A DNA stretch of 64,000 bases from NCBI GenBank assembly GCA_035373905.1, contig DAOSOK010000004.1, positions 33,271 through 97,270 of the forward strand. Reading direction: 5' to 3'. Origin of the DNA: Candidatus Ozemobacteraceae bacterium. GTDB lineage: Bacteria; Muiribacteriota; Ozemobacteria; Ozemobacterales; Ozemobacteraceae. Positions within the stretch are counted from its first letter, which is position 1, and each line of letters opens with the position of its first letter. Of this stretch, positions 3,408-49,228 are shown in pieces. The notes beneath the pieces were generated by a model. The model saw nothing but the letters and a program-made list of their open reading frames with translations. It was not told the DNA's origin and did not search any database. The translations under genes were made by a program, and so were the position numbers.

Positions 3408-4322
3408 ATGAGCGAAGGAAACAAGGAAACCAGATTCGGCGCCGTCGGCGTCTTCGGCCGGGCGAACGCCGGCAAGTCGACGCTGGTGAACGCCCTCGTG
3501 GGCGAGAAAGTGTCGATCGTCTCGAAACGCCCGCAGACCACGCGGCGCAGGATCCTCGGCATCCTTACGGAAGGGGTCTCGCAGGTCGTCTTCTGCGACA
3601 CGCCGGGCCTTCACGCGATCAAAAATCGCCTCGACGCCTTCATGGCGCGCGAGATCGAGGCGACCGCCGAGGGGCTCCAGGGTGCGTTGTATCTGGTCGA
3701 TCTGACGGACATCAGCCCCGAAGAGGATGCGGCCCATCTGAAGGATCTCCTTGCCTGGCTCGGGAGCGATGTGCCGCTGTATCTGGTCCTGACGAAACTC
3801 GACGAGCGGAAAAAAGCCGATCCCGACGGCGTCGCCAAAGAATACGCGGCGTTCGCGTCGTTCGCAGGCACGTTCAGCGTATCGGCGGAAAAAGGCACCG
3901 GTCTCGGCCGGCTGAAGAAAGCCGTGTTCGACGTGCTCGTGCCGAGCCCGCACGCCTACGACGGCGAACTTTTCACGTCCCAGACCGAGCGGGAGATCGC
4001 CGAGGAGACGATCCGCGAGGTCATTCTCGAGAAGTATTATCACGAGGTTCCTCACTCGGTTGCCGTGCTGGTCGAGCAGTTCAAGGAGCGGGAGAACGGA
4101 AAGACGTTCATCGAGGCCCATCTCGTCATCGAACGGGAAAGTCACCGCAAGATCCTTCTCGGTCACGAGGGAGAAGGAATCAAGGCGATCGGTTCTCTCG
4201 CCCGCGAACGGTTGAACGGGATTCTCGGGCGTGATATTTATTTACAGCTTTGGATCAAGGTGCGCCCGAACTGGCGCAAGCAGGATGCCTGGGTCCGGAA
4301 CCTGGGTTATCGCGACCGGTGA
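3408..4322 (+). CDS. era: GTPase Era
   Basis: G1 motif GRANAGKST, G3 DTPG, (T)KLD, and a C-terminal KH domain; 304 aa, typical for Era. Confidence 0.9.
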   Translation: MSEGNKETRFGAVGVFGRANAGKSTLVNALVGEKVSIVSKRPQTTRRRILGILTEGVSQVVFCDTPGLHAIKNRLDAFMAREIEATAEGLQGALYLVDLTDISPEEDAAHLKDLLAWLGSDVPLYLVLTKLDERKKADPDGVAKEYAAFASFAGTFSVSAEKGTGLGRLKKAVFDVLVPSPHAYDGELFTSQTEREIAEETIREVILEKYYHEVPHSVAVLVEQFKERENGKTFIEAHLVIERESHRKILLGHEGEGIKAIGSLARERLNGILGRDIYLQLWIKVRPNWRKQDAWVRNLGYRDR

Positions 4323-4338: not shown

Positions 4339-6021
4339 ATGAACTCGATTCTCATGGTGGTTGTCGCCGTTATCGTTATTCTGCTGGTCTTTGTCATGTT
4401 TTCCCTTGACGACCAGGAAGAGTATACGGTCGACGAGAATCCGGCCCGGCCCGAATCCGAAGACGCCGGCGCGATGAACGCCGCATCGGCGGCGGCTGGA
4501 CAGGCAGGAGGGGCGCCGAACGAACCGCCGGGCGTGTCCCGGGAGGCGGGTGTCGACGTTCCCCCGCAGGCCGTTTCGGCCGCGGCGCGACAACGCCGGT
4601 TCAAGGCGGAACAGGCCGGGGACGCACGTTCCCTGGCCGATATCGACAGCGTCCAGGTCGGCTCGGAAGAGGATCTGAGATATCGTCTCCTCCTCGATGA
4701 CCAGGTGCCGCCGCCCACCGAGGTTTCCGTGAAACAGGGCGTGGCCGTCATCGTCCAGATCCGGCTTCCGGAGGAGCTCCAGACCGACCAGGAAACCTGG
4801 GCCCAGACCTTGGCGAGCGTCGAGGCGATCCTGTCGCCCGAGAAGGCGCCGTTCCCCTACAGCGTCTACCTGACCAGTCAATTCGACCACCTGTGGCTGT
4901 TCGGCATCGACGAGGAGCGTGACGACCCGGTGTTCGAAGCGATCGTCTGCGCGTTCGATGCCGTACGTCGGTTCAAGAAGGCTCTCGAGTCCCAGCCCGC
5001 CCTCCAGGCGGCCAGAGCCAGACTCTCCGTCGGCATTTCCAGCGGAAAAATCGCCCGCATCAAGCGCGGCCCGCTCGGTCCCGTTTCCCATGCGGGAAAG
5101 GCGGTCTATACGGCCGAGGCGCTTTCCGAGGTCGCCGGCGATTTCATGATCTACGTGGATGACGACGTCCACCGCCTCGCCATTCCGCTGTTCGACTTCC
5201 GCGAGTGGAAACCGATCAAACTGCGGCCGGCGCTTCCGCCGATCCCGTTCTACGAAGTCATGGGCTGGAACAAGAAGGAAGAGATGTTCGCCTTCGCCTC
5301 GCACAAGGAATCCTACGCGCGCCGAGCCGTCGCCGTGGCGTTCCGATATCTCGAGTTCGACGATATGGGACCGCTGATCAACCTGATGAACGACGCCGAC
5401 GAGAAGGTTGTTCTCGAGACCCTCGCAACCCTCGCCGAGATCGGCGACCCCCGCGGCATGGGGATGCTCAAGAAGATCCTTCCCGAAGCCCGCGACCCGA
5501 TGGTGCGGAGCGGCATTCTCAAAGCGTTCGGCGGGATCGGCAGTTCCGAGGTGATCCCCTTGCTGAAGGCGTCGATGAAGGATGCCCACTGGCTGGTGCG
5601 CTACCAGGCGGTGCTCTCGATGGCCCGTCTCGGCGGTAGCGATGCGCTCAAGCACATCGAGGAACTGGCGAGTGACGACGACGGCGCCGTCCGGGCCGCG
5701 GTCCATCAGGTGAAATACCTGGAAACCCAGAACAAGGCCGATCTCGATGCCCTCAACGAGCTGCTGGGCGATCTTTCGGGCCGGGCGCGCAAGGCCGCCG
5801 CCGAAGCTCTGATCAAGATCGGCACCCGCGAAGCCCTCTCGATGGTCGCGCGGTCCTTCCATCAGCAGGAACCGGGCCTGTGCAGGCACATCCTCCGGCT
5901 TCTCATGGAATGCCGCTCGCAGAGCCTCTACCAGACGTTCCTCACGCTCTTCCAGCACTCGGGCGAGAAACTGCGGCCCGAAATCGTCGCGGCCGTGCGT
6001 CGCGCGCGGCTCGTGGGCTGA
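4339..6021 (+). CDS. membrane-anchored HEAT/PBS-lyase-repeat protein with a degenerate nucleotide-cyclase-like (CHD-like) middle region
   Basis: The internal ATG at 4339 has an RBS-like GGGAAAGGAACG upstream; the upstream part of ORF 4231 overlaps era. One N-terminal TM helix is followed by an acidic linker. The middle region (LSVGISSGKIARIKRGPLGPVSHAGKAVYTAEAL) resembles a class III cyclase fold without obvious catalytic residues. C-terminal HEAT-like repeats are present (DPMVRSGILKAFGGIG, WLVRYQAVLSMARLGG, DGAVRAAV). Confidence 0.5.
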   Translation: MNSILMVVVAVIVILLVFVMFSLDDQEEYTVDENPARPESEDAGAMNAASAAAGQAGGAPNEPPGVSREAGVDVPPQAVSAAARQRRFKAEQAGDARSLADIDSVQVGSEEDLRYRLLLDDQVPPPTEVSVKQGVAVIVQIRLPEELQTDQETWAQTLASVEAILSPEKAPFPYSVYLTSQFDHLWLFGIDEERDDPVFEAIVCAFDAVRRFKKALESQPALQAARARLSVGISSGKIARIKRGPLGPVSHAGKAVYTAEALSEVAGDFMIYVDDDVHRLAIPLFDFREWKPIKLRPALPPIPFYEVMGWNKKEEMFAFASHKESYARRAVAVAFRYLEFDDMGPLINLMNDADEKVVLETLATLAEIGDPRGMGMLKKILPEARDPMVRSGILKAFGGIGSSEVIPLLKASMKDAHWLVRYQAVLSMARLGGSDALKHIEELASDDDGAVRAAVHQVKYLETQNKADLDALNELLGDLSGRARKAAAEALIKIGTREALSMVARSFHQQEPGLCRHILRLLMECRSQSLYQTFLTLFQHSGEKLRPEIVAAVRRARLVG

Positions 6022-6024
6022 TTC

Positions 6025-7419
6025 ATGGCCATTGAGATTCTCGTTGTCGACGATGAGGACATGATCCGGTGGACCCTCCGGGAGTCCCTGGAAGCCGAGG
6101 GCTACAAGATTTTCGATTTCCCGAACGGCCGGGATTTCATCCGCTACTTCTCTGAAAAAGGCGGAGATATTATATTGCTTGATGTTCGATTGCCGGACGC
6201 GAACGGCCTCGATCTCCTGCTGGAAATCAAGCAGCTCGATCCGAACGTTCCCGTCGTCGTGATGACGGCGTTCGGCGACGTCGAGACGGCCGTGACCGCG
6301 ATGAAACGCGGGGCATACGATTATCTCTCCAAGCCCTACAACCTGGCGGAAGTGAATCTTCTCATCAGGAAGATCGTCGAGACGTCGCTGCTGAAAAATC
6401 AGCTGCAGTACATTCGCGAGCGTGTCGAAAACAACTTCGCGCAGATTCTCGGCGACAACCTGAAAATCAAGCAGCTGCGCGACCACATCGCGATGGCGGC
6501 CCAGAGCGACCGGACGACGGTGCTGATCCGGGGCGAGTCCGGAACCGGCAAGGAGCTGGTCGCCCGCCAGATCCACCAGCAGAGCACCCGGGCCGGCCAG
6601 CCTTTCATCGACGTGAACGCCGCCGCCGTTACAGGCACCCTGCTCGAATCCGAGTTGTTCGGTCACGAAAAAGGCGCGTTCACAGACGCCCAGCGGCAGA
6701 AAAAAGGCTTCTTCGAGCTGGCCGACAGGGGAACCCTCTTCCTCGACGAGATCGGCGATCTCGATCCGAATCTGCAGGCCAAGCTGCTGCGCGTCCTCCA
6801 GGAAAAACGCTTCCGGCGCGTTGGCGGCTCGACCGACATCTCGGTCGATGTCCGCATCATCGCCGCCACCAACGCCGATCTCGAGCGGGCCATGGAAGAC
6901 GGTCGCCTGCGCCGCGACCTGTTCTACCGGCTGAACGTCTTCACCGTCTTCCTGCCTCCCCTTCGGGAACGCCAGGACGACATCCTGCTGCTCGCCCGCG
7001 CATTTCTCGACCAGTTCCGCCGCGAATTTTCGAAGGATATCTCCGGCTTTTCACCGGAGGCCTGCGAGATCCTTCAGAAATACGCGTTCCCGGGCAACGT
7101 GCGCGAGTTGAAGAACATCATCGAGCGTGCGACCCTTCTCGAAACGACGAACAAGATCAGACCCGTCAGCCTTCCCGAGGAAATGCGGAGCTGGCGTGGG
7201 CCCGCCATGACCCAGGCGCCTGTGTTGCCGTCCGACCGGCCCTGGAAAACCCCCGGGTTCAATCTCAAGGAATACGTGGATTCCGTTGAGAAACGGATCG
7301 TGCAGGACGTGATCAGGGAGTGCGAAGGCAAAAAAGGTGAGGCGGCCAAACTCCTCGGCTTGACCAGGTTCGCCCTGCGACACCAGTTGAAAAAGCACGG
7401 TCTCGATGAAGAGGGCTGA
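6025..7419 (+). CDS. sigma54-dependent response regulator (NtrC/Fis family): receiver + AAA+ sigma54-interaction + HTH
   Basis: A receiver domain (DDE..D..K pattern, LLDVRLPDANG) is followed by Walker A GESGTGKE, the sigma54-contact GAFTDA motif, GTLFLDEIGDL, and a C-terminal Fis-type HTH. Confidence 0.9.
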   Translation: MAIEILVVDDEDMIRWTLRESLEAEGYKIFDFPNGRDFIRYFSEKGGDIILLDVRLPDANGLDLLLEIKQLDPNVPVVVMTAFGDVETAVTAMKRGAYDYLSKPYNLAEVNLLIRKIVETSLLKNQLQYIRERVENNFAQILGDNLKIKQLRDHIAMAAQSDRTTVLIRGESGTGKELVARQIHQQSTRAGQPFIDVNAAAVTGTLLESELFGHEKGAFTDAQRQKKGFFELADRGTLFLDEIGDLDPNLQAKLLRVLQEKRFRRVGGSTDISVDVRIIAATNADLERAMEDGRLRRDLFYRLNVFTVFLPPLRERQDDILLLARAFLDQFRREFSKDISGFSPEACEILQKYAFPGNVRELKNIIERATLLETTNKIRPVSLPEEMRSWRGPAMTQAPVLPSDRPWKTPGFNLKEYVDSVEKRIVQDVIRECEGKKGEAAKLLGLTRFALRHQLKKHGLDEEG

Positions 7420-7501
7420 AAACGCATTGAATCGCGATGGGCGCAAGGCCGCTCCTCTGTATGCGGCGTTCCGGGATGGTACGTTTTCCGGAAAGAGGAT
7501 G

Positions 7502-7575
7502 TGTGAAAAAAACACGAGAGAGGAGGGATGTGAAAAAAATACACGTATCCGGCGTGAAAAAGATTGTACATCACG
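7502..7575 (+). promoter_or_regulatory. three tandem GTG-(A-rich)-CAC inverted-repeat motifs, candidate enhancer (UAS) sites for the adjacent sigma54 activator
   Basis: tGTGaaaaaaaCACg at 7502-7516, tGTGaaaaaaataCACg at 7529-7545, and cGTGaaaaagattgtacatCACg at 7553-7575. They lie 10-85 bp upstream of the -24 element. Confidence 0.4.
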
Positions 7576-7585
7576 TATTCCAAAC

Positions 7586-7603
7586 TTGGCATGAATCCTG
7601 CTT
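7586..7603 (+). promoter_or_regulatory. sigma54 (-24/-12) promoter
   Basis: tTGGCATgaatccTGCTt has GG and GC separated by exactly 10 nt, matching TGGCAC-N5-TTGCA. It lies about 40 nt upstream of the 7644 start. Confidence 0.55.
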
Positions 7604-7643
7604 GAACAAAGACAGCAATCGAGCCTACGCAGGAGAAAAAAAG

Positions 7644-8093
7644 ATGATATCGGAACTGCTCCAGGAAAACTTCATCAATCTCGATCTCGACGCCGGTTCC
7701 AAGAACGATGCGATCGCGAGCCTCTCGACGATGCTTTCGTCATCGGGCAAGGTCGTAGATAGCACCTCCTTCGTTCGGGCCGTTCTCGACCGCGAGAAGC
7801 TCGGAAGTACCGCGATCGGTTCCGGGATCGCCATTCCTCACGCCCGTGCCAACACGGTCAACGAAGTGTCCATCGCTTTTGCCCGCTGTGGAAAAGGCGT
7901 CGACTTCAACTCCGTAGACGGTGACCCCGTTCATCTGATCTTCCTGCTTGCCGCACCCATCGAGTCCGGCAGCCTGTATCTCAAACTTCTGGCGCGCATC
8001 TCTCGCCTTCTTCGCTACCAGGATCTCATCGAAGAACTGAAGAAGGCTCAGACGAAAGAAGACGTCATCCGCATCATCGCGTCGAAGGAATGA
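7644..8093 (+). CDS. ptsN: PTS EIIA type-2 domain protein (PtsN / EIIA-Ntr-like regulator)
   Basis: The internal ATG at 7644 is preceded by AGGAGAAAAAAAG. The EIIA-2 fold carries an active-site His in GSGIAIPHAR. The upstream part of ORF 7437 covers the promoter region and is rejected. Confidence 0.75.
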   Translation: MISELLQENFINLDLDAGSKNDAIASLSTMLSSSGKVVDSTSFVRAVLDREKLGSTAIGSGIAIPHARANTVNEVSIAFARCGKGVDFNSVDGDPVHLIFLLAAPIESGSLYLKLLARISRLLRYQDLIEELKKAQTKEDVIRIIASKE

Positions 8094-8587
8094 TCCGGCG
8101 AAGCCGGAGGGGTACGGGTATGACGCTCGTTCAGGCATACGAAGCCGGCGAAAGCAGCACGGTCAGCATGTCCCCGGAGGGCCTGTCTGTTCACATGCGC
8201 ATCCCTGCCGAACGGATGTACATGGCGAACGCGGTGCTGACGCTTCGCGAAATCTGCGACCATCTCTGCCTTTCCCCAGAACGCACCAACCGGGTCGTTC
8301 TGGTACTCGAAGAGGCGCTGATGAACTCGATCGAGCATGCCTACAACGGTGACGGCGGCTTCATCGATCTGCAGTTTTCGATCGAGGGTCCGGAATTCGT
8401 GATTGTCGTCGAAGACTTCGGCAACGGTATGGTCCATGACGTCGACATCGATTCGCTCGAGGCTTCCGATCTGCTGTTCGAGCGCGGGCGCGGACTGTGC
8501 ATCATGAAAGGCATCTCCGACAGGGCCGTCGTCCAGTCGAGTTCCCGCGGCACGCGGGCCACGATGCTTTTTCAGCTCCACAACTGA
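8090..8587 (+). CDS. anti-sigma regulatory factor / Ser-Thr kinase-like GHKL ATPase (HATPase_c_2, RsbW/SpoIIAB-like)
   Basis: About 165 aa with N-box-like EALMNSIEHAY and G-box-like motifs (EDFGNGM, GRGL). The ATG overlaps the ptsN-like stop (ATGA). Confidence 0.6.
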   Translation: MIRRSRRGTGMTLVQAYEAGESSTVSMSPEGLSVHMRIPAERMYMANAVLTLREICDHLCLSPERTNRVVLVLEEALMNSIEHAYNGDGGFIDLQFSIEGPEFVIVVEDFGNGMVHDVDIDSLEASDLLFERGRGLCIMKGISDRAVVQSSSRGTRATMLFQLHN

Positions 8588-8596
8588 GAGGAAGAA

Positions 8597-9066
8597 TGAC
8601 CACAGACAACATCAGGGAACGAACCTTCGTTCTTATCAAGCCTGACGGCATCCAGCGCGGCAAAGCGGGAGAGATCATCTCCCGCTTTGAGTCTAAAGGG
8701 CTGAAAATCGTCGGCATGAAAATGGTTCGCATCACCGGCGAACAGGCCGAGCGCCAGTATGCCTGCCACAAGGGAAAGGCGTTCTACGAGTCGCTCGTCG
8801 CCTTCATGCTTTCCGGGCCGTGCCTGGCGCTTGTGCTCGAAGGCCGAAACGCCATCGATATTGTCCGCAAGCTGATGGGAGCGACCAATCCGCTCGCGGC
8901 CGAACCCGGCACCATCCGGGGCGATATGGCCCTGGACACCAAGCACAACCTCGTCCACGGTTCCGATTCGCAGGCCAGTGTCGACCTCGAAACGCCGATC
9001 TACTTCGCGCCGAGCGAACTCTTCGAATACGATCTCGCGACCAGGGACTGGCTGTATTACACCTGA
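8597..9066 (+). CDS. ndk: nucleoside diphosphate kinase
   Basis: ERTFVLIKPDG, the NxxHGSD active-site His motif (NLVHGSDS), and 156 aa; RBS GAGGAAG before the ATG at 8597. Confidence 0.9.
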
Positions 9067-9093
9067 ATCCGCCCTGACAATCTGATCCACCAC

Positions 9094-9128
9094 GCGGGAG
9101 GGGCTGACCTGCCTCTCCCGTTTTTTCT
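9094..9128 (+). terminator. rho-independent terminator after ndk
   Basis: A GC-rich stem (gcgggaggggctgacctgcctctcccg) is followed by TTTTTTCTT. Confidence 0.5.
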
Positions 9129-9510
9129 TCCCCGAGCGCTTTACGAAGCGCCCGAAAATGCGTTTTTTCCTCCGTGTCTGGTATGTGTGTTTCACTTTGA
9201 GAACCAATCCGCAGATGACGCTGATGAAGCAGATTTCGCAGATGAAACCCTGAAAACCTTCTTGCCCCGGCGTTTCCCATCCCTGGCGAAAAAAAGCTCG
9301 CTTCAGACGTTCGCTCTTATCTGCTCTTCATCAGGTTTTACATCTGCCCTCCATCTATGGGTACATTCCTGAAAACCTCGTTTTTACAACGGAGTGTCTC
9401 CATGACTCTGTGATTCGTTGTTGTTTCAACATACCGGGCATGAGGGGAAACTCATGCGCTCGTTCTGGTAGGGCCTTGCATTGAAGGCGGCGATCAGGCA
9501 TCATGCGGAC

Positions 9511-11115
9511 ATGCGCCTGTTCCGCCTCATGCTCGGATTGGTTCTCGTCGTTCTGTTCGCCGCTCTTGGCGCATGGGGCGCGCTGTCGTCGGCCGCCGGG
9601 AACGAGTATGTCGTGCGCTGGGGGGCGATGATGGCCGCTCAGAACCTCGATGCCGACATGCAGCTCGGACGGGTGACCGGAACGGTGCTGGAAGCCCTGC
9701 GCATCGACGGCGTCCAGGGAATGGTGCGTCGCTCGCGGACGGGATTCGTGGCGGGGCCGGTCGAAATCTCGTTCAACCTGCGCCAGGCCCCACGGCGCGG
9801 TCTCGTCATCGGGACGCTCGATTGCCCCTGGCTCAAACTGTGGGGAGGAGTGCCGGTGCCGCCCTGGTTTGGCGCTTTGCCGGAACTGCCGCCGCCGACG
9901 TGCCAGGCCGATCTGAAACTTCCGGTCGGCATCGACCGTGTCCGCCTCGGCCGCATCGACTGGATGCCGGCGGCATCGGGGCCGGTCGAGGTCACGATCG
10001 CATCGTTCGCGATCGACCCGGCATCACGGACGAACGGTCTCCAGCCCGTCTCGTTCTCACTGTCGGTCCGATTCAAAGGCGCCGAGTTCGCCGCCGCGGC
10101 CTTCGATGGACACCTGGCTTCGACCAGGGCGGCTCTGTCTGGAAAAATAGAAGGAAATATATTTGGCTTTCCCGTCGATAGCGGACTGAAGGTATCGGTG
10201 AAACGGGACGGCGTCTTCGCCGAGGGGACGCTTGCCGAAATGCGGGTCGATCTGACGGTGCTGTCGAAATGGCTCAGTCCGCTCTGGCGGGACACCGTGC
10301 CGCTCTTCGTGAACGGACGGGTCACCGCGGGAGGGACTTGGATGGTCCAGCCGAAGATCGGCTTCGCGGGCCGGTTCCAGGGACGATTCGACCGCGTCGT
10401 GTTCGTGCTGACAGGGTTCAATCTGCCGCTCGCCGAGCTGAACGCCCCCTGGAAATTCTTCGACGACAAACTGCACATCGAGAATGAAAACAGCCGGTTC
10501 ATCGGGTTCCCCGCCTCCTTCAGCGGAGCCGTCGCGCTTGCGGCCGGGCTGAAACCCGACTGGGGCATCGAAGCCCGGGTTGCCGATCTTCCCCTGGCCG
10601 AACTCATCGCAACCCTGCCGTGGGCGGTGCGGTATGGATACGGCGTTCCCTACCTGGCCGGCCTGGCAAGCATGACCGCCCGCTTCGACGGAACCGCGCC
10701 CGGCATCCTCGTCAACGCGACGGCGCTGGTGGCCCGGCAAACCGGATCCGCCGCAACGTCGAGCGTGTCGATTCGCTACCGCCACGCGGCCGGGCAGCCG
10801 GACCGCTGGGATCTCGAATCCCGATGGACGGCTGAATCCGTTATGCCGAAAGGTTTTGCAGGACTCCCCGTGCGGACCGCCCCTTCGGGAGAACCGTTGC
10901 GGACGCCGTTCGAGTTCCGCTTCGAGGGGCACGGGACGCATGTCGACAAGCTCGATGCGAGGCTGGGCATTCTCTGGAACGAATCCTCCGCCTGGGAAGC
11001 AACGGGGCTCCTCGAAGGGCATACGTGGGAGGGCGTCGTTGCCGGACCGGAAGGCACACCGGTGGCGCTCCCTCAGGGCCTCGGCCTGGTCGACTTCCTG
11101 CTGCCGGGGATGTAA
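9511..11115 (+). CDS. hypothetical membrane-anchored protein (single N-terminal TM, large periplasmic/extracytoplasmic domain)
   Basis: ATG at 9511 (MRLFRLMLGLVLVVLFAALGA); a TTG at 9481 is an alternative start. No recognisable catalytic motifs. Convergent with the FapA gene. Confidence 0.45.
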   Translation: MRLFRLMLGLVLVVLFAALGAWGALSSAAGNEYVVRWGAMMAAQNLDADMQLGRVTGTVLEALRIDGVQGMVRRSRTGFVAGPVEISFNLRQAPRRGLVIGTLDCPWLKLWGGVPVPPWFGALPELPPPTCQADLKLPVGIDRVRLGRIDWMPAASGPVEVTIASFAIDPASRTNGLQPVSFSLSVRFKGAEFAAAAFDGHLASTRAALSGKIEGNIFGFPVDSGLKVSVKRDGVFAEGTLAEMRVDLTVLSKWLSPLWRDTVPLFVNGRVTAGGTWMVQPKIGFAGRFQGRFDRVVFVLTGFNLPLAELNAPWKFFDDKLHIENENSRFIGFPASFSGAVALAAGLKPDWGIEARVADLPLAELIATLPWAVRYGYGVPYLAGLASMTARFDGTAPGILVNATALVARQTGSAATSSVSIRYRHAAGQPDRWDLESRWTAESVMPKGFAGLPVRTAPSGEPLRTPFEFRFEGHGTHVDKLDARLGILWNESSAWEATGLLEGHTWEGVVAGPEGTPVALPQGLGLVDFLLPGM

Positions 11116-12575
11116 GGCGTGAATTCGATCCGCTCCTCCGGGATTTTCTGGTAAAACGTCAGGAGTGAACGGTCCGAATCGATGGTCATGCGCGATGCCC
11201 GGATCGAGAGAATGACGCCCTGCCGGAACACGCCGGCCGAGATCGTCGAGCGGGTTTCCTCGAGCAGGACGAGGGCGAGGTCGGCTTTTTTCAGTTCGAG
11301 CTTGGTGATCTGGTCGCTCAGGCTGGCGACCTTGTGTTCGAGGCTGGTCCGAAGCGGCTCCGCCTTGCCAGGCGGCAGTTTTTCCGGAAAGTTCTTCACG
11401 AACAGCAGGTTCTTTTCGGCCTCGTAATGCTGGCGCCGGATGTCGTTGATGATCTTCACGACCAGGTTCAGTCGGCTGAGGGCGGTGTGCGAAACGCCGC
11501 AGGAGACGCGGGTTTCAACGCCGACGGCGTTTCCCAGCTCGCCTGCGGTGATCGAGCGGAAGGAGATGAGCTCGCCGCCGCTGAGCGACTTTTCGATCAT
11601 GACCTCGCCGTTCACGTTGATGCGCGAATTGAGGGCTGAGCGCAGGAAGAGGTCGCCCTGCACCGTGAGGCAGGCGTTTTCAGCGTACAGCGCGCGAAGG
11701 TTGCCGAACACCTTCACTTCGTTCTTGTCTTCGACCTTCCCGGCCGTGCCGAGAATGCCCTTGCCCACGTCGAGATCGCCCCCGACGGTGACGCGGGTGC
11801 CCGCCTCGATCATGCCGTCGACGCGCAGGTTCCCGGTCACGGTCACGGAAAACCCGTACCGGATCGAACCGCGCACGACGAGCGAGCCCTTGAAGCTGAT
11901 GTGGCCGGTACCGAAATCGACGTCGCCCGGAATGACCATGACAGGAGTGACATGCACCGTGACCGAGTTCATCCCGGACTCGACGGTCAGCTGGCCTTCG
12001 CAGGCCGCCCGGGCGATGTCGTTCGTTCCGTCGGACTTCAGGACGACGTTGCGCCCCGCCACGACCCGTTTGTCCTTGCCGGGAACGGCGGGAATCGGCT
12101 TGCCGAAGACCGAGTGGCCCGACTCGCCCTTCGTGGCCGGCCGCTTCACCAGGATGATCTCGTCGGTCGAGACGCTGCGGAACAGGTCGCGCGTCTTGAA
12201 GTCCAGCGTTCCGTCCGGGCGCGTCAGGTGCTCCATCGACGGCCGGGGCACGAGGATGTCGATATGCGCCGGTTCGCCGTCGAGCGGTTGTATTCCTGTT
12301 GCTATTTTTCTCGGCGGAAACGTGATGCGCCGTGCGATGAGGCGCGGAAGCTCGTTCGTGACGAAACCCCGATCGAGCCCGAACAGGATGCGCTCGTTGA
12401 GGGCGTTCTGGATGGTCAGACAGGCGGCTTTGTCATCGAACGAATCGGGAAACGACTCGATAGAGAGGTAGGCTTCCGTCTCGAGCCGGTTCGTCGTCAG
12501 GGAAAGGGAAAAACCGGGAAGTTCCCGTGCGAGGAAGGTTCCCGGTTCCATGCGGTGGGGGATGCCTGCCGGCAA
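11073..12575 (-). CDS. FapA-family protein (DUF342; beta-helix plus C-terminal coiled coil)
   Basis: Repetitive beta-helix-like segment (GDVDFGTGHISFKGSLVVRGSI..VTVTGNLRVDG..VTVGGDLDVGKG) followed by a coiled-coil region, about 500 aa. Start ambiguous between 12575 and 12551. Confidence 0.65.
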   Translation of the reverse strand: MPAGIPHRMEPGTFLARELPGFSLSLTTNRLETEAYLSIESFPDSFDDKAACLTIQNALNERILFGLDRGFVTNELPRLIARRITFPPRKIATGIQPLDGEPAHIDILVPRPSMEHLTRPDGTLDFKTRDLFRSVSTDEIILVKRPATKGESGHSVFGKPIPAVPGKDKRVVAGRNVVLKSDGTNDIARAACEGQLTVESGMNSVTVHVTPVMVIPGDVDFGTGHISFKGSLVVRGSIRYGFSVTVTGNLRVDGMIEAGTRVTVGGDLDVGKGILGTAGKVEDKNEVKVFGNLRALYAENACLTVQGDLFLRSALNSRINVNGEVMIEKSLSGGELISFRSITAGELGNAVGVETRVSCGVSHTALSRLNLVVKIINDIRRQHYEAEKNLLFVKNFPEKLPPGKAEPLRTSLEHKVASLSDQITKLELKKADLALVLLEETRSTISAGVFRQGVILSIRASRMTIDSDRSLLTFYQKIPEERIEFTPYIPGSRKSTRPRP

Positions 12576-12582
12576 AGCCGGA

Positions 12583-14978
12583 TCAGCCGGCCCGCGAGCC
12601 GTTGTTCAGGCCGACCCGCCGTTCGACGTCGGCGATGCTGACGCCCTGGCTGGACAGGAAGTTCTCGAACCAGGCCGTATCGACGCTGAACGAGCGCAGT
12701 TCGCCGCGGAACGCGATGATCAATTGCTCGAGTTCGACCAGGTCGCCGACCCGGAGCTTGGTTTTCTGCTGGCCGCTCATGGAGCGCAGGTTGTCGAGAG
12801 CGGACCGGACGGCGCTCGCGAACTCGTACCGGGTCACCTTCGAGGCATCGTAGAACGGCATGCCGGGCAGGAGCCCCTTCGAGATCACGCGCTTGAGCGA
12901 CTTGAACACCCAGTGGTTCGCCGGCACGTAGACGAAACCGGTTCCGGCCGAGCCGGCGGACGTGGTCATACGGGCGGCGGCGGCCGACTGGGGCATCGGG
13001 GCGCGACCATCGGCCAGCGGGATGTAGAACGCCGAGTCGGCCTCGGCGGCACGGGGCCGGGCGAGAGTTGCTCTGCGGGCCTGGCGCTCGTTCTGCGTTG
13101 TGAACTGCCACGAATAGCGGGCGACGAGTTGCTCGCCCGATTGGCTCTTGATCTTGTCGCTGATGAGAACCTTGTACTGCGTATCCGCGTCGAGAGGGGC
13201 GGCGGGAATGAAGACTGCGCGTTTCTGGCGGCCGTCGTAGGACACGCGCCCTTCGACACGCTCCTGGCGGCCGAAAACCGAGATGTTGATCGGGTTCACG
13301 GTACTCTGCTGGGCGGGTTCGCTGAAGTGAATGACGATCTTGGCGTTGCGGGCGACCTGCTCGGCGTTTGCCGCCGGCAGAATCCCGGTCACCTTGAAGG
13401 TGGAGAGGGCTTCGCGGGGCGCAGCCTTGCGGGGAACGGCGGTTCTCGCCGCCTTGCGGGGAGCGGGGGCGCTCCAGTCGGCGTCCGCTTCCATGGCGGC
13501 GTTGTTCCCGGCGGGAGCCGCTTCGTCATCGAAGCCTTCCAGTTCCCTGGATTCCTGGATCGTTTCGCGCATCACCGGTTGGGCGCGGCGGGGAGCCGCC
13601 TGTTTCGCGGCGGCGGGCGCGCGGCGCACGGGCGCCGCGGCAAACGCTTCGGGCATGGCGGGAGCCGCGGCGGGCGAGGTGGTCGCGAAGGTTGCGGCGA
13701 GGGCGTTCTGCAGCGGGCGGCCGGTCATGTCGGTCACGCCCTGGGTGATGATCACGCGATACGAGCGGTTTGCGTCGAGCACGCCGACGGGGGTGAGCAC
13801 CGCGCGTTTCTGGCCGCTCAGATACTGGATCTTCGCGGGCACCGGGCCGAAATCGTCTTCGACCCGGAAGGTGAACTCGTTCAGGGTTTCAGGCCGGACT
13901 TCCTGGTTGAAAGCCACCGTCACCGGTTGGCTGAGATTGGTGACGACGGCGCCGCTTTGCGGCGACATGCCGACCAGTTTCAGGGGAATCGCCGCCTGCA
14001 TTGCGACGTCGCCGTAGGCGTCGGCCGCGGGGGCGTCGAACGATGCGGTGTTCACCAGGCCCTGGCGGCGCGCCGGAGCAGCGACCGGCAGAGCGGCGTC
14101 GCTGGGCGCTTCCTCGAGAACGTTGTCGGGAACGACCACGTCGACGCTGCCAGAACCGCTTCCGCCGATGCGGAAGGGAATGATGGTGTTCTTCGGAAGC
14201 CTGGCACCCGAGCTTCCCGCGAGCGTCTGGCTGATGGCGATGCCATACTCGTTGCCGGACTTCAGGGGCTGGCGGGGAACCAGCGTCAGGGTCTTCAGGT
14301 CGCGCGACAGGCGGTAATCGACGCCGACCGTTTCCCGGTTACACATCAGTTTCACCGGGGCGTCCTTGAGGGAAGTGATGTCAAGCGCTTCGCTGAAGCT
14401 GACTTCGAGAGGATTCTGCGGGTTGATCACGCCGCTGGACATGTTTGCGTTGGTGATCAGCAGTCTCGCCGCAGCTGCGCCGCCCATGGGGGCGGACATC
14501 GCGGCAGCCCCGGCGGCCTGCATCGGAGCGTTCACGGCATTCTGCGCGCCGGCCGAGCGCTGGCTCCCGGAGGAAGAAACGCGGAAGTTCCACATCTTCT
14601 CGGCCGTTCCGCTCACGCCGTCGCCGAAACTGAGCTGGGCGGTGTACATCTGGCCCGGCTGAAGACCTGCCTTGGGCTTGAACATCACCTGGCGGGCGGA
14701 GGGATTGTAAAACAGCTCGCCGTCGACGGGCTGGCCGTTTTTGAACAGGTTGAGATTGATCGTCTGGTAGAACGCCTGCGAAAGAGCCCCGCCGAACTCG
14801 ACCGTCAGGGGGGTGGTGGCCGAAACGTCGGAGGCCATATCTGCCGGAACGGTCTTGACGACCTGGACCGCCTGGCCTGCGTTCGCCTGCATACCGAACG
14901 CGGCTGAGGCGTGCAGAGCGGGACCGGCACCTACCAGCAGAGCTCCCAGGACGACGGCTCGAATTCCACGGTTCATGA
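12583..14978 (-). CDS. secreted surface protein with several Ig-like (Big/SbsA-type) repeats and a C-terminal SLH-like domain
   Basis: The ATG at 14978 has a GAGGAGG RBS. A signal peptide (MNRGIRAVVLGALLVGAGPALHASA) is followed by repeated about-100-aa Ig-like blocks (TVxF..A, LxxG..Y). The C-terminus (HWVFKSLKRVISKGLLPG...YDASKVTRYEFASAV) resembles an S-layer-homology domain. Confidence 0.55.
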
Positions 14979-24068: not shown

Positions 24069-26931
24069 TCAGGCGTGGTGCTTCCGGAAATGCCGGAGCC
24101 AGGCGAGGAACTTCTCGGTCTGGGAACCGATCAGTTCGGTCAGGAGGATCGCCTCGCGGTCCTGGTAGTTCTTGAGGGCGAACTCAGACAGCAGGTTGAG
24201 GCAGCCGGGGTCGCTGAACAGCTCGAGCAGACGGTCGAAATGATGCCTGAACTCCTCGGCCTTCTTCTGCCGCTCCTCTGACGAAAGACTTGGACGACGC
24301 AGTTTGAGCCGCTCGAGGAGAGACAACGGCTGGTTGAAGAGCTGGGCGAGACAGGTCGGACCCCGCGGCTGGCGTGCCCAGATATACAGGATGTCGAGCA
24401 TCGCGGTGAGCCGCACGTCGCGATCGTGCGAGCTCAGGCGCGGGAGCAGCTCGCTGAGGTCGCGCTTGCGGATGACGATGCGCTGGCTGTATTTCCCGAA
24501 GCCCTCGATGAAGCCGCCCACGACGTCGGACCAGAGTTTCGCCTGAACGATGCTCGGAATGCCGATCAGGTTGCCGATCGGCGCGAAGGTCGTCGCGAAC
24601 GGCCAGGCGAGCACCGTGCGGAAGAAGTTCGCCCGGATGACCCGGCGGTCGAAGTTGCGCAACCGGTTATGGGTGCTGATGTAGATTCCGTTCGCCATGC
24701 AGAGGAAGAAGAACTTGGCGCCCTCGAACAAGAAGCCCGACTTCTCGAGCGGCCAGTTTTCGTCGAACGCGATTTTCACGATGCCCAGGATCGGGACGCT
24801 GAAGCCGGTCCAGAATAAGGACTGAGATATATTATCGAAGTTGACGTTGCGGAGGCTCCAGTTCCGGATGAGGATCCCGGAGCTTGCGAGCAGGTCGACC
24901 AGCATGTTCCGGGTGCCGGTGATCAGGAACCAGATCGTCGCAAACATCACCCCGGCCAGCTGGCCGAACTGGTAATTCATGAACGAGAACGCCACGATGA
25001 ATCCGATGGTGATGCGCCAGAGGCTCTTGAGGCCGGGGTTCACATACGCCCAGAACTCTCCGGGCGGGACGAGGGCGAGCGCTTCCTCGTCTCCGACCAG
25101 ATTCCGGAAGGGCTTCCCGATCTTTCCCATGCAGACGACATCCGACGCGCTTCCAATCGGCGCATCGGGGCTGTCGTTCTTCTTTCCGCCGTGGATGACG
25201 AGGTCGGCGATCGGCCGGGGCACCTTATAATGCGATTCGAGGAATTCGGGGCGCACCGACTCGGGAATGTTGCCGACCTTGATGAAGCCCATGCCCGGGA
25301 TCGTCGGGTCGCGGCCGGTCGAATCGCTGCCGCAGACGGGAACCAGCGGCCGGCGTGCGATGAGTTCCCGGGCTTTTCTGACCTGCTCGCGGGTTCCGCC
25401 CGTGATGCCGTGCTGCTCGAGGAAGTTCACGATGTCGTCATCGGTGCCGTTGTTGAGCAGGTAGACGAACTTGTTGAAGATGATCAGGTCGTTCGGGTTG
25501 CGCGACGAACTGTCGCGCAGGTTCAGGGTCTCGATGTGCGAGATGCGGGCGATATGCTTGAGCAGGTGCTGCATCGAGTCCTTGAGGCCGATTTCGAGGG
25601 GGTGAATCATCACGATCCGGCCGCCTTGGCCGATCAGCGTGTCGAGAATCGGCTCTTCTTCGGCGAACTCGCTGTCGTAATCGACGACGTCCCGGCCCTC
25701 CATGTAAGCGGCGCGCAGGCTTTCGGGCGTCATCGTCTCATACTGCTCGCGGACGGCCTCGTATTGCGACGAGATGTTCTTGAACTCCCACTCACTGTAG
25801 ATGCCCCGCGCGAGCCGGTCTTCGGCGGCCAAGACCTGTGCCTTCAGCTGGAGGACGCGGCGCTGAAGGATGTCGCGAAACTTCTGGAACAGGAGTTCGC
25901 CGATATGAACCCGGGAAATCTGGCCGCAGGCGACGATACGGTCCAGTTCCTCGAGGGTGAGGGGGGGGAACCAGCAGGGGCTGTCGGGCTCCCAGCCGGA
26001 ATTGAGCCGGGGCCGCTGGAGCGTGTTGAATCGCTCGACGGCCGCGACCATCGTCTTGTGGCGGCTCGCCGCGTTCGTGCGGAGGCCGCTTAGAAACGGC
26101 GTGAAAATCATCCGACGTTCGTCGAAGAACGCGAAGAACTCCTTGCTGTCCGCGGTCTCGGGAGGCACATACATGTAGTGCCGACGTGCGCCGCTGTGTC
26201 CGACGCTGAACTCGATGCCGATGTTGACCTTGATGCCGAGCAGGTTCCCGGCGGTGATCGCCTCGTGGATCATGCGCCGCTCGTCGAGGTTCGAATACAC
26301 GATGGTGAGGCGTGAGATGCCCTTCACAAAAGCATCCAGCAGCACCTGCGTCGGAGTTTTGCGGCCTTCCGACAGGAAGTCGTGAACGTGGTCGTCCCAG
26401 CCCATGTCGAGCTCGCGGAGCGGTTTCTCCTCTTCGGGCACCTCGACCAGGTGGAGCTTGTTGAGGAACCGGCGGACGACCGCTTCCTGTCCGAACGAGA
26501 CCAGACCGAAGTCGGCCATGGCTTCCATCTGGCGTCGGCGGTTGCTGCGGGACTTGACGACCTCTTTCATCAGGTCGATCTGGATGCGCGCCGTGTTCAG
26601 CGGCATGTTGATCGTCTTCGCGTGCAGGGACTGGTCGACCAGCATTGAGAGGGCCGCAAGCCGCTCCTCGGCGGAGTTCGGGGAAAGGTCGCGCGCGATC
26701 TTGATATAGGCGCCCGCGATGCTGAGACGCCGTTTGCCGAAGTCGCGGACGAATCCGCCGGGGTGGGAGAGGTGCCGGACGTTCAGTCGGGTCGGAGGCT
26801 CGTCGAGCTTGTGGTTGACGGCATCGACCAGCGACTCGATCTCGTTGTTGAAGCTCAACCAGTCGATCAGGCGGGACAGCAGGCCGACGGCCGTGTCGTG
26901 GGAGGTTTGCAGCAGCCAGCGGAGCATGTTC
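24069..26931 (-). CDS. large conserved hypothetical protein (~954 aa): N-terminal soluble region plus C-terminal polytopic membrane domain
   Basis: Start chosen at the ATG at 26931 (MLRWLLQTSHD...). The track ORF continues upstream to 28508, but that part is antisense to glmM. The C-terminal 250 aa contain 5-6 hydrophobic helices (ITIGFIVAFSF..., FATIWFLITG..., FWTGFSVPILGIV...). No family recognised. Confidence 0.45.
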
Positions 26932-27123
26932 GGATCCTGATCCTTTCTCGATGCCGGCCTTCGCCGGATGCCGTGATCGTGCGGTTGCTTCTTTTGCGTG
27001 TAACACAAAAAGGGAAAACCCGCCCCACCCCCGACCCGGTTTCGGACATCGGGGCGAACGCAACAGGGTTTCCCTCGGACCTCAACATTATACCCCCCCG
27101 ATCGGGAAAATTCAATCGGAAGG

Positions 27124-27134
27124 TGTGATATACT
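27124..27134 (+). promoter_or_regulatory. extended -10 promoter element (TGtgaTATACT) for glmM
   Basis: gTGaTATACT lies 34 nt upstream of the glmM ATG; the same motif recurs upstream of 33707. Confidence 0.35.
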
Positions 27135-27167
27135 CATTTCATTCATCACGTCCCCGGAGGTTTTTCC

Positions 27168-28517
27168 ATGGCACGACTGTTCGGTACCGATGGTGTTCGA
27201 GGTGTGGCCAACCAGTATCCCCTGACGGCCGACATGGCGTTCCGGATCGCCCAGGCCGGCACCCGCCACCTGCTCCTCAACCACAAGAAACACGATCGGC
27301 CGATCTTCGTCGGCAAGGACACCCGCCTGTCCGGCGACATGCTCGAGCACGCCGTGGCGGCCGGCATCGCCTCGATGGGCGCCGAAGCCCGACTGCTCGG
27401 CGTGGTTCCGACCCCCGCCGTCGCCTTCATCACGCGCGAAATGCAGGGCCTCGGAGGGATCGTCATCAGCGCTTCGCACAACCCCTTCCAGGACAACGGC
27501 ATCAAGATCTTCGCCGCCGACGGATATAAAATATCGGATGCTACAGAAGACGCCATCGAGAAGGACGTGACCGGCACCGCTTCGTTCATCCTTCCGACCG
27601 GGGAAAACCTTGGCCGCGTGACGGCTGATACGGCCTCGGTGCAGTTCTGGCTGGCCCATCTCGCGAAGATCCTCGGCGACTCTCACGGGGCGAAACGCCT
27701 CAAGGTCGGCCTGGACCTGGCGAACGGCGCCCTGGCCCCCTGGGCCGTGAAGTTCTTCACCGATCTCGGGTTCAGCGTCGACGCCATCGGCAACTCGCCC
27801 GACGGGCGCAACATCAACGCGAACTGCGGATCCACCCACGTTCAGCATCTCGTCGAGATGATGGGGCGCGAGCATTTCGACGTCGGCTTCGCGTTCGACG
27901 GCGACGCCGACCGGGTCATCGCCGTGACGAGCCAGGGCGACATCATTGACGGCGATTATATATTGGCCATTACAGCAAAATACCTCAAGCAGCAGGACAA
28001 GCTGCCGGGCAACTCGCTCGTCACGACCGTCATGAGCAATCTCGGCCTCGACCTCGCCATGAAGGGCCTCGACATCAAGGTGCTCAAGACGAAGGTCGGG
28101 GACAGGTTCGTTCTCGAGGAGATGAAGCGCACCCAGACGATCGTCGGCGGCGAACAGTCGGGTCACATCATCCTTTCCGACTACGCCACCACCGGAGACG
28201 GCCTGCTGACGGCCTGCTTCATTCTCAAGATCATCCGCGACACCGGCGCTTCGCTGAAGGAACTCAGCGAGGTGATGATGAAGCTGCCCCAGGTGCTCGT
28301 GAACATCCGGGTCAAGAACAAGAACTTCGATGCGGTCCCCCAGATCCAGGAGGAAATCCGCCTTTCCGAAAAGAAACTCGCCGGCCGTGGTCGCGTGCTG
28401 GTCCGCCCGTCCGGCACCGAGAACCTCGTGCGCGTGATGGCCGAGGGGCCTGACGAACGCGAGATTCGCCACCTCGTCGACGGGATCGCGAAGGCGATCT
28501 CGAATCATCTCTGCTGA
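27168..28517 (+). CDS. glmM: phosphoglucosamine mutase
   Basis: MARLFGTDGVRG N-terminus, active-site Ser in SASHNP, the four alpha-D-phosphohexomutase domains, and 449 aa. Confidence 0.9.
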   Translation: MARLFGTDGVRGVANQYPLTADMAFRIAQAGTRHLLLNHKKHDRPIFVGKDTRLSGDMLEHAVAAGIASMGAEARLLGVVPTPAVAFITREMQGLGGIVISASHNPFQDNGIKIFAADGYKISDATEDAIEKDVTGTASFILPTGENLGRVTADTASVQFWLAHLAKILGDSHGAKRLKVGLDLANGALAPWAVKFFTDLGFSVDAIGNSPDGRNINANCGSTHVQHLVEMMGREHFDVGFAFDGDADRVIAVTSQGDIIDGDYILAITAKYLKQQDKLPGNSLVTTVMSNLGLDLAMKGLDIKVLKTKVGDRFVLEEMKRTQTIVGGEQSGHIILSDYATTGDGLLTACFILKIIRDTGASLKELSEVMMKLPQVLVNIRVKNKNFDAVPQIQEEIRLSEKKLAGRGRVLVRPSGTENLVRVMAEGPDEREIRHLVDGIAKAISNHLC

Positions 28518-28526: not shown

Positions 28527-29144
28527 GTGCGGGCGATGCGAGAAAACGGAACGATGAAGCCCCTTTCGAGGCGGTTCGCCGTTTTCTTTGCCGCCGCCCT
28601 GCTGCTTGCGCCCGGGTGCGGCCGCAAACCCCAGAACCCCGGCCAGAATGATCCCGGGAAGAAATCGCCGGATTCCGTCGCCGTCACCGGCCGGGCTTCC
28701 GATACGGTCTCGCCGGCAGGTGCCGGAAACGGCGCCATCTCATCGGGCGGCGCGCTCCTGCCGGGCCGCGGCGAGGCCCAGAAGGCGCCCATGACTCCCG
28801 CCGTCAGGCGCGAGTTCGAGCGCCGCTACGACAAAGGCATCGAACTCCTCGAAAAGCAGGAATACGGCGAAGCTTCCCGCATTTTCGAACAACTCCTCAC
28901 CGAAAGCTCCGATCCGCAGGATGCGAGCGTTGCCGCCTACTGTCTCGCCGAGATCTGCTTCCGGAACAAGTCGAATGCCCGGGCTCTCGAACTGTTCAAG
29001 GAAATCGTCGAGAAGTATCCCGGCACGCCGGCCGCCGACAATGCGAAGGCCGGCATCGAGTACCTCGAGAATTTCCACAAGCACGAGGCCGATTACGTTT
29101 CCCCGGACGTGGAGGATCGGAAGCGCCGGGGAGCGGGCCGATGA
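28527..29144 (+). CDS. TPR-like helical lipoprotein (YbgF/tol-pal-like fold)
   Basis: An N-terminal hydrophobic segment ends in LAPGC, then a G/S/P-rich linker, then TPR-like helices (YDKGIELLEKQEYGEASRIFEQLL ... AAYCLAEICF ... ALELFKEIVEKYPG). Start may be 28554. Confidence 0.5.
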   Translation: MRAMRENGTMKPLSRRFAVFFAAALLLAPGCGRKPQNPGQNDPGKKSPDSVAVTGRASDTVSPAGAGNGAISSGGALLPGRGEAQKAPMTPAVRREFERRYDKGIELLEKQEYGEASRIFEQLLTESSDPQDASVAAYCLAEICFRNKSNARALELFKEIVEKYPGTPAADNAKAGIEYLENFHKHEADYVSPDVEDRKRRGAGR

Positions 29145-29175
29145 TGGACCCGTGCGGCGAAAAGGGCAAAATGGC

Positions 29176-29655
29176 ATGAAACAGGCGTTCGAACGGCGAC
29201 ACGGTTTCTCGATCATCGAAGTGCTCCTGGCGATGCTCATCATCGGTGCCGGCGTCGTGCCGGTGCTGTCGCTGTTTCTGACCGGTTCCCGCACCGTCGA
29301 GAAGGGCGGGTTGCTGCTGTCGGCCACCATCGCGGCCCAGAACGTTCTCGACCGCGCGAAGAGCGACGCGTTTCTCTGGGGCAACGTCCCGCTCACCCTG
29401 GATTTTCCCGATCCCGATCATCCGCAGTTCACGCTGCCCGCCTTCTTCGCGAAGAAATACAGCGCGTCCGGGACGCTGATCATCGAGGAGGCTCCCGGCC
29501 ACACCGTCATCGGCACCGGCGAGAAGGAGACGAACCTGGTCCAGGTCAGCGTCATCATTCGCTGGATCGAAAACAAGACCGCGCGGTCGACCAGGCTCGT
29601 GACGTACCGTGCGAACACGAACTGCTTCGACCTGAAGACGTCCGCGAAATTCTGA
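29176..29655 (+). CDS. prepilin-type N-terminal cleavage/methylation domain protein (pseudopilin/type IV pilin-like)
   Basis: Internal ATG at 29176. Class III signal ...RRHG|FSIIEVLLAMLIIGAG, with Glu at +5 after the Gly. Confidence 0.7.
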   Translation: MKQAFERRHGFSIIEVLLAMLIIGAGVVPVLSLFLTGSRTVEKGGLLLSATIAAQNVLDRAKSDAFLWGNVPLTLDFPDPDHPQFTLPAFFAKKYSASGTLIIEEAPGHTVIGTGEKETNLVQVSVIIRWIENKTARSTRLVTYRANTNCFDLKTSAKF

Positions 29656-45773: not shown

Positions 45774-45808
45774 ACCTCGATTCTTCGGCCGGAACGGTCG
45801 ATCCGGTT

Positions 45809-49187: not shown

Positions 49188-49228
49188 ATGCGTTTCTCCC
49201 TGTTTCGCCTTGGAGCGTGATGTCGCCA

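Follow-up and report, generated by a model that had tools for sequence, protein, structure and literature searches.

The window analysed here is a 64-kb stretch of a metagenome-assembled genome (MAG) contig from Candidatus Ozemobacteraceae (Riflebacteria), with a G+C content of 62.6%, and its homologues carry the names Candidatus Ozemobacteraceae or Riflebacteria. Within the window, we found a gene for a response-regulator-type sigma-54 activator that is followed by two putative enhancer sites, a predicted -24/-12 promoter and the genes for a stand-alone EIIA protein of the phosphotransferase system (PTS), a GHKL protein with the SpoIIAB/RsbW fold and a nucleoside diphosphate kinase (Ndk). Upstream of the activator gene lie era and a gene for a HEAT-repeat protein. 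All six genes are on the + strand, and Pfam gave domains for five of the six (Table 1). The activator gene stands at the end of a housekeeping cluster with the order ybeY–corC–DUF502–DUF3048–era. Our best explanation, to which as a whole we assign a probability of about 0.7, is that these elements make up a phylum-conserved, enhancer-dependent transcription unit.

Table 1. Coordinates of the genes and of the predicted regulatory features in the window
Feature	Coordinates	Strand	Details
Era	3408-4322	+	
HEAT_2 protein	4339-6021	+	HEAT_2 2.6e-23; start codon set by ortholog N-termini
REC–Sigma54_activat–AAA_lid_14–HTH_8 activator	6025-7419	+	Response_reg (PF00072) 1.1e-28; Sigma54_activat (PF00158) 7.7e-69; HTH_8 (PF02954) 2e-07
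Putative enhancer site 1, GTGTGAAAAAAACAC (GTG-N9-CAC)	7501-7515		Centred 80 bp ahead of the -24 GG; position about -105 relative to the predicted start
Putative enhancer site 2, GTGAAAAAAATACAC (GTG-N9-CAC)	7530-7544		Centred 51 bp ahead of the GG; position about -76; 29 bp between the centres of the two sites
Third repeat (GTG-N15-CAC)	7554-7574		Arms conserved in the window's own clade only (alignment of intergenic regions)
Sigma-54 -24/-12 promoter, TGGCATGAATCCTGCT	7587-7602	+	GG 7588-7589, GC 7600-7601; GG-N10-GC spacing
GGAG ribosome-binding site	7632-7635	+	8 nt ahead of the EIIA ATG; read from the sequence
Stand-alone PTS_EIIA_2 protein (EIIA)	7644-8093	+	Pfam 9.1e-42
SpoIIAB/RsbW-fold GHKL protein	8120-8587	+	HATPase_c_2 3.7e-20; start fixed by orthologs and a GGAGGGG ribosome-binding site
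Nucleoside diphosphate kinase (ndk)	8596-9066	+	NDK 4.4e-53; final gene of the unit
Intrinsic terminator	9094 to about 9121-9131	+	Stem of 11 bp with 8 GC pairs, then a T run
544-aa protein	9481-11115	+	Hydrophobic N-terminal segment; no Pfam or NCBIfam match

Conservation, promoter and extent of the unit

A genome scan with the GHKL alignment yielded 13 Riflebacteria species loci, which have the gene order era–HEAT–activator–EIIA–GHKL–(ndk)–544-aa protein in common. The order era–HEAT–activator–EIIA–GHKL(–ndk) was also found in two loci from more distant lineages, L032 and L034, the latter taken from a 5.2-Mb contig. Of the 13 species loci, 12 had ndk in the adjacent position, as did L034, and no ndk followed the remnant of the GHKL gene in L032. 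Across lineages, identities ranged from 72 to 99% for EIIA, from 48 to 97% for Era and from 30 to 96% for the GHKL protein. In particular, the proteins of locus L018 showed identities to the window proteins of 82% (EIIA), 67% (activator), 46% (HEAT), 55% (Era), 48% (GHKL) and 62% (Ndk), and those of L019 showed identities of 79% (EIIA), 67% (activator), 55% (HEAT), 48% (Era) and 30% (GHKL), with no ndk homologue found. Homologue searches located neither the GHKL family nor the HEAT protein nor the gene order as a whole outside Riflebacteria, which agrees with a first-pass annotation of this DNA that had called the arrangement uncommon.

The predicted promoter, TGGCATGAATCCTGCT, was the sole match to TGGCAYN6TGCW in the 64 kb and came out at the top of a weighted consensus scan, and its end lies 41 nt from the EIIA ATG. 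The pattern TGGCAYG-N4-HTGC was invariant 35–54 nt ahead of the EIIA start codon in all 13 species loci, and the DNA around the -24/-12 element was unalignable between clades. The strict promoter pattern was present exactly once in each of the module-carrying loci (19/19) and in none of the other loci (0/12). The corresponding promoter was TGGCACGAAAAATGC in L034 and a variant, TGGTACGTTTCTTGC, in L032, and the element was kept in 17 divergent Riflebacteria lineages. As far as sequence comparison can go, this agreement across lineages settles the case for the predicted -24/-12 element.

Upstream of the promoter, we found two dyads of the form GTG-N9-CAC, whose distances were counted from the dyad centre to the first G of the -24 GG. 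A dyad was present 80 ± 2 bp upstream of the GG in 17/17 lineages and 51 ± 1 bp upstream in 13/17 lineages. The orthologous intergenic regions, 15 in number, contained 30 GTG-N9-CAC sites, as against 0.8 in shuffled sequences (maximum 5), and three of the five matches to GTGAAAAA in the window fell in 7503-7561. The third repeat was rejected as a third activator site at 29-bp periodicity; since its GTG/CAC arms were unconserved outside the window's clade, it is not a conserved copy of sites 1 and 2. Additionally, a separate TGTAC element that the third repeat overlaps (7565-7569) was conserved within Ozemobacteraceae, being located 21–23 bp upstream of the GG in 13 of 15 loci, and was absent at that position in L032 and L034. 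When the full two-dyad-plus-promoter pattern was used to scan metagenomes, only three loci were returned, all of them orthologous, with no extra regulon members. We know of no described activator with a GTG-N9-CAC site; in combination with the promoter, this site provides a ready motif for regulon searches in Riflebacteria genomes.

With the usual geometry, in which the GG occupies -25/-24, transcription would start near 7613, giving a leader of 31 nt. The sequence CAGGAG was conserved in most of the orthologous intergenic regions. The EIIA and GHKL genes are separated by 26 nt and the GHKL and ndk genes by 8 nt. The terminator after ndk was the only + strand terminator-like site between genes in 5900-9600, and the transcription unit was therefore taken to be EIIA–GHKL–ndk; the other + strand terminator match in this interval, a weak 6-pair stem at 6149-6167, lies inside the activator gene. 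With no terminator between the activator gene and the operon, basal read-through from the activator gene probably occurs, to which the sigma-54 promoter would add an inducible boost.

A sigma-70 scan found no + strand promoter-like site in the region, Rfam gave no RNA element in 5900-9600, and a regular expression for the RpoN box had no match in the 64-kb window. A literature search on Riflebacteria and RpoN found nothing. On the minus strand, a sigma-70-like site (ATGCCA-18-TACAAT) was observed at 7563-7592, the -10 of which is the reverse complement of the conserved ATTGTA/TGTAC and the -35 of which is the reverse complement of TGGCAT. This site would point antisense into the activator gene and is probably coincidental.

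What the first-pass annotation had said of the regulatory region was borne out in part. Its NtrC-type activator at 6025-7419 was matched by Response_reg, Sigma54_activat and HTH_8, and its canonical sigma-54 promoter with GG-N10-GC spacing was confirmed by the scan and by the conservation in 17 lineages. It had also described three tandem repeats; the motifs exist, and two of them are conserved GTG-N9-CAC sites, but the third is clade-specific. Finally, it had placed the EIIA and GHKL genes under the promoter, where both indeed lie, but the unit also takes in ndk, after which the terminator is located.

The activator and its HEAT-repeat neighbour

The activator has a receiver, an AAA+ domain for sigma-54 interaction and a C-terminal Fis-type helix-turn-helix (HTH), which are the domains of a response-regulator-class enhancer-binding protein. 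In 15 orthologs, the receiver retains the motifs that surround the acidic, phospho-acceptor, Thr and Lys positions expected of it, and the sigma-54 contact loop, which reads GAFTDA and not GAFTGA, was likewise invariant in 15 orthologs. GAFTDA is among the natural GAFTGA variants listed as activity-compatible, and DVU2106 of Desulfovibrio vulgaris has a GAFTDA loop and assigned sigma-54 targets (PMC4641369); another paper leaves the effect of GAFTDA open (PMC10714721). In NCBIfam, the best matches of the activator were AtoC (474, cut-off 714) and NtrC (434, cut-off 558.6), and all equivalogs were below their cut-offs. The Pfam scan of the window covered 44 of 45 candidate open reading frames (ORFs); another six candidates, of which three are probably spurious frames on the opposite strand, lay outside it. 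Among the 44 scanned ORFs, there was no HisKA, STAS, PP2C, sigma-70-family, PTS EI/HPr or PTS transporter gene. The receiver is an orphan, with no kinase gene nearby. Elsewhere in the window, the scan brought out a 1004-aa protein (51636-54650, + strand) that combines AMP-binding, PP-binding (carrier) and HMG-CoA-reductase domains, the reductase-type domain being C-terminal; this ligase–carrier–reductase architecture is unusual, and a formyltransferase-like gene comes next (54616-55413). Very large ORFs without a Pfam match were also noted, of 1479 aa (24069-28508, minus strand), 973 aa (46308-49229, minus strand) and 747 aa (57481-59724, + strand). A prepilin-type N-terminal methylation motif was present in three proteins (28921-29655; 44268-46088, minus strand; 59702-60139), of which two are encoded beside these large ORFs and the third, at 44268-46088, about 220 nt away from the 973-aa ORF.

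The stop of the HEAT gene lies 3 nt ahead of the activator start, and the gene was found immediately upstream of the activator gene in every module lineage. The encoded protein consists of a hydrophobic N-terminal segment (a putative membrane anchor), a cyclase-fold domain and C-terminal HEAT repeats, and its family was found in Riflebacteria only (67 clusters at E≤1e-65), the matches beyond these being HEAT proteins without relation to it. An AlphaFold2 (AF2) model computed with a 46-sequence alignment had a predicted local distance difference test score (pLDDT) of 90.9. Foldseek revealed that the N-terminal domain of this model resembles class III adenylyl/guanylyl cyclases (5oyh, 2w01, 3r5g and 1wc1) with E ~1e-8, TMt of 0.75–0.80 and identities of 12–16%. 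At the sequence level, the domain had no Pfam Guanylate_cyc match and no PDB profile match, and a comparison by hhalign with a bona fide Riflebacteria cyclase domain returned a probability of 0.2%. The canonical metal-binding and transition-state motifs of cyclases (Asp, Asn, Arg) were absent by eye, and for this reason the modelled domain is probably a pseudo-cyclase. From the invariant close abutment of the two genes only, the HEAT protein is a plausible sensory partner of the activator. As a separate observation, two tandem large HAMP–Guanylate_cyc genes (10170-14450) follow the module in L032 after a few kb.

EIIA and the GHKL protein

EIIA was the most conserved protein of the locus, above Era and Ndk. 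It has the active-site motif GIAIPH, and GxG[IVL]A[IVLF]PH was kept in all 120 listed homologues; an identical EIIA is encoded on contig JAKPPM010000033.1 (GCA_029547365.1) and on one JGI metagenome contig. EIIA scored 92 bits against the NCBIfam PtsN equivalog TIGR01419, below the cut-off of 138.7, and 118.9 against the Fru-type IIA domain model TIGR00848, above the cut-off of 103.5. Its homologues fell into two Riflebacteria groups, namely orthologs with identities of 70–94% and a 151-aa paralogue with identities of 44–55%, and both paralogues scored alike against the PtsN model. The 151-aa paralogue is encoded directly after hpf and before secA, near hprK–cofD–whiA (L028 1709-8887; L030 190-11366), and shares a MAG (JAAYVD01) with module locus L015. 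By its context, the hpf-linked paralogue occupies the PtsN-like position, and the EIIA of the window was therefore read as a further regulator that is specific to the lineage. The nearby hprK points to a regulatory PTS based on HPr. Binding to partners, among them the sensor kinases KdpD and PhoR, is how EIIA-Ntr proteins work (PMC5363084). The context of the paralogue mixes the proteobacterial hpf–ptsN arrangement with the firmicute hprK/yvcK/whiA arrangement; its cofD is yvcK-like, and no rpoN is adjacent.

The GHKL protein of the window's clade has invariant residues in the N box (E65…N69), G1 (D99-x-G101-x-G103), G2 (G123-R-G125) and the G144-T-R146 motif, so that the N, G1, G2 and G3 boxes are intact. 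Its AF2 model had a pLDDT of 83, and the best Foldseek match was SpoIIAB (1th8_A) with a TMt of 0.86 and a root mean square deviation of 2.2 Å, followed by RsbW (6m37) and UsfX. The scores were far below the NCBIfam cut-offs for RsbW and SpoIIAB (44 of 145). An exhaustive profile search over 1.84 billion representatives gave 6355 relatives, among which the family itself was narrow: five representatives reached ≤1e-41 and were followed, after an empty interval, by generic anti-sigma kinases from 1e-20 on. In L019, L032 and L034, the gene in the GHKL position encodes a protein of 139–157 aa in which the N-terminal half (…HMRIPAE…LTL…ICDH…) was kept and G1/G2 were lost. These truncated proteins match only positions 7-85 of the RsbW models and are sub-threshold for Pfam. 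Intact ATP boxes thus occur in the Ozemobacteraceae clade only and, judging from the loss of G1/G2 in the other lineages, ATP-dependent phosphorylation cannot be the phylum-conserved function; binding is more likely to be what is conserved.

Neither the window ORFs that were scanned nor the orthologous loci had a STAS or sigma-70-family gene, except for a sigma/anti-sigma pair of the extracytoplasmic function (ECF) type in L019. This lineage is distant and low in GC, and what comes after its degenerate GHKL remnant is not ndk but a gene for a sigma factor of the ECF type (Sigma70_r2/r4_2) and one for a zf-HC2/FecR anti-sigma protein (5032-7254).

In L034 and 12 of the 13 species loci, the gene for the 544-aa protein came next after the operon. 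It was rejected as a member of the unit, because the strong terminator and a gap of about 400 nt intervene. In L033, a homologue of this protein (7559-9193; 21% identity, E 3e-28) is encoded directly after a relocated EIIA ortholog, which hints at a functional tie of the 544-aa protein to EIIA, despite the terminator in the window.

With regard to the proteins, the first-pass annotation proved partly accurate. Its PtsN-like EIIA does have the PTS_EIIA_2 domain and the active-site His, but it is below the PtsN cut-off and is itself a second paralogue. Its RsbW/SpoIIAB-like GHKL kinase has the fold and, in Ozemobacteraceae, the ATP boxes, but G1/G2 are lost in other lineages. The missing sensor kinase next to the activator gene was corroborated by the lack of HisKA among the 44 scanned ORFs, and the degenerate cyclase-like domain of the HEAT protein was found again at the fold level, without a sequence-level match. 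The labels "self-contained" and "nitrogen/carbon-status node" for the module were unsupported.

Proposed mechanism and comparison with known systems

We propose that an unlinked kinase would phosphorylate the receiver Asp of the activator, which would then bind the two GTG-N9-CAC dyads as dimers at about -105 and -76 and form an AAA+ ring, whose GAFTDA loop would open the sigma-54 holoenzyme at TGGCAT-N6-TGCT. The product would be a leadered mRNA that encodes EIIA, the SpoIIAB/RsbW-like GHKL protein and Ndk and ends at the terminator after ndk; read-through would set a basal level, and the sigma-54 promoter would provide the inducible boost. On the output side, which is the least certain part, EIIA, as an extra paralogue with a regulatory role and a phosphorylatable His, would be paired with the GHKL protein, which would bind EIIA or a sigma factor. 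Given the loss of the ATP-binding boxes in other lineages, the GHKL protein would be able to do without ATP-dependent kinase activity. We have low confidence in this pairing of EIIA with the GHKL protein.

Several observations weigh against this explanation. TGGCAYN6TGCW was matched at least once in 22 of 100 shuffles, so the window match is weak, and not significant, when taken alone. The binding of the dyads by the adjacent activator is inferred from adjacency and co-conservation only, and ndk would be odd as a gene transcribed by sigma-54 only. Additionally, the EIIA ortholog of L033 (72% identity) occurs in another context, without the activator, the promoter and the GHKL gene, and none of the 10 long GHKL relatives tested was an EIIA–HATPase_c_2 fusion; these had STAS, PAS, SpoIIE or unassigned fusions instead.

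If the -24/-12 match were non-functional, EIIA–GHKL–ndk would be expressed by read-through from era–HEAT–activator or from an unrecognised sigma-70 promoter. The shuffling result, the lack of a terminator between the activator gene and EIIA and the intergenic region of L007, which is only about 150 bp long, are in line with this view; we nevertheless consider it highly improbable in light of the GG and GC, their spacing and their position, which were invariant in 17 lineages with unalignable flanks, and of the empty sigma-70 scan of the + strand. It is also conceivable that the dyads are bound by another regulator, such as a repressor or a nucleoid-bending protein, and that the adjacent activator works elsewhere in the genome. 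The dyads were assigned to the activator from sequence, their A/T-rich spacers are typical of bent DNA, and the extra conserved TGTAC means that more than one factor may act. However, half-sites about 12 bp apart suit a dimeric Fis-type HTH, as is established for this family, and two sites about 75–105 bp upstream of a sigma-54 promoter are the arrangement usual for enhancers. Moreover, sites, promoter and activator gene co-occur in every lineage and are all missing together in L033, and we regard the odds as being strongly against a different regulator.

The cooperation of EIIA and the GHKL protein is more exposed to doubt than the enhancer–promoter unit. With the same wiring, EIIA could be an ordinary PTS/PtsN-type phosphocarrier-regulator and the GHKL protein an ordinary anti-sigma kinase, with its STAS antagonist and sigma factor encoded elsewhere, the two merely sharing an operon; we rate this as a possible but rather doubtful alternative. 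The nearest GHKL relatives outside Riflebacteria sit in classical, spoIIA-type STAS–kinase–sigma operons, the fusions among the 10 long relatives never involved EIIA, and L033 has an EIIA without a GHKL gene. A literature search for EIIA-Ntr together with partner-switching likewise found no link, with one Pseudomonas TOL network paper that names PtsN and RsbW left unread. In contrast, the adjacency of EIIA and GHKL genes persists phylum-wide, even where the GHKL protein has 30% identity or is truncated, and no STAS, PP2C or matching sigma gene was found among the scanned ORFs of the 64 kb. Loss of the ATP boxes would disable a STAS-phosphorylating switch, yet the remnant is kept in place.

A more specific form of the EIIA–GHKL pair can be imagined, in which EIIA replaces the STAS antagonist. 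The GHKL protein would hold a sigma factor or another regulator, and EIIA would release or engage the GHKL protein according to its own His phosphorylation, which would be controlled via the HPr/HprK branch of the PTS. Serine phosphorylation by the GHKL protein would be dispensable; the switch would be induced by sigma-54, and the HEAT/pseudo-cyclase protein may gate the activator. This model would explain why remnants without ATP boxes stand beside an extremely conserved EIIA. It is speculative, and we think it unlikely to be correct.

The enhancer–promoter unit is genuine and strongly conserved. All of its components belong to well-known families and its cis logic is that of textbook sigma-54, so the transcriptional side offers a clean but unremarkable case. 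What is unusual is the payload, where a second regulatory EIIA is accompanied by a SpoIIAB/RsbW-type protein lacking a STAS partner and repeatedly losing its ATP boxes, and the input, where the activator gene abuts the gene of a putative membrane pseudo-cyclase/HEAT protein and not a kinase gene. The setting is an unstudied candidate phylum, and both the output pair and the input neighbour are lineage-restricted. If the EIIA–GHKL switch were true, partner switching would be tied to the phosphorylation state of the PTS, a connection for which no precedent was found in the literature searched.

We compared the locus with four known systems and found it similar to each of them in part. The window EIIA resembles PtsN of the proteobacterial rpoN–hpf–ptsN arrangement in being a stand-alone Fru/Mtl/Ntr EIIA with an active-site His, no EIIB/C nearby and a genetic link to sigma-54. 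The direction of this link is different, since the PtsN gene lies in the rpoN operon, whereas sigma-54 is predicted to transcribe the window EIIA gene. The window EIIA is also below the PtsN cut-off and follows an activator gene, while the neighbour of hpf is the other paralogue. The GHKL protein shares the fold, the HATPase_c_2 domain and, in the window's clade, the intact N/G1/G2/G3 boxes with SpoIIAB/RsbW; it differs in its low model scores, in having an EIIA and not a STAS antagonist as its neighbour, in the lack of an adjacent cognate sigma gene and in the retention of only the N-terminal half in other lineages.

As in the NtrC/AtoC/ZraR class, the activator has the REC–AAA+–Fis-type HTH architecture, two dyads lie about 75–105 bp upstream of a GG-N10-GC promoter, and the regulator is encoded beside its putative target operon. 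Unlike members of this class, the activator is below the equivalog cut-offs, has a GAFTDA loop and a GTG-N9-CAC site, lacks an adjacent histidine kinase and is encoded next to the HEAT/pseudo-cyclase gene. In NifL–NifA pairs, the gene of the anti-activator is located directly upstream of the sigma-54 activator gene and is translationally coupled to it. The HEAT gene is similarly a non-kinase gene directly upstream of the activator gene, with a gap of 3 nt and with the pairing present in all lineages. The two arrangements are similar but not identical, as the HEAT protein, with its hydrophobic N-terminus, probable pseudo-cyclase domain and HEAT repeats, is unrelated to NifL, and the activator has a normal phospho-accepting receiver.

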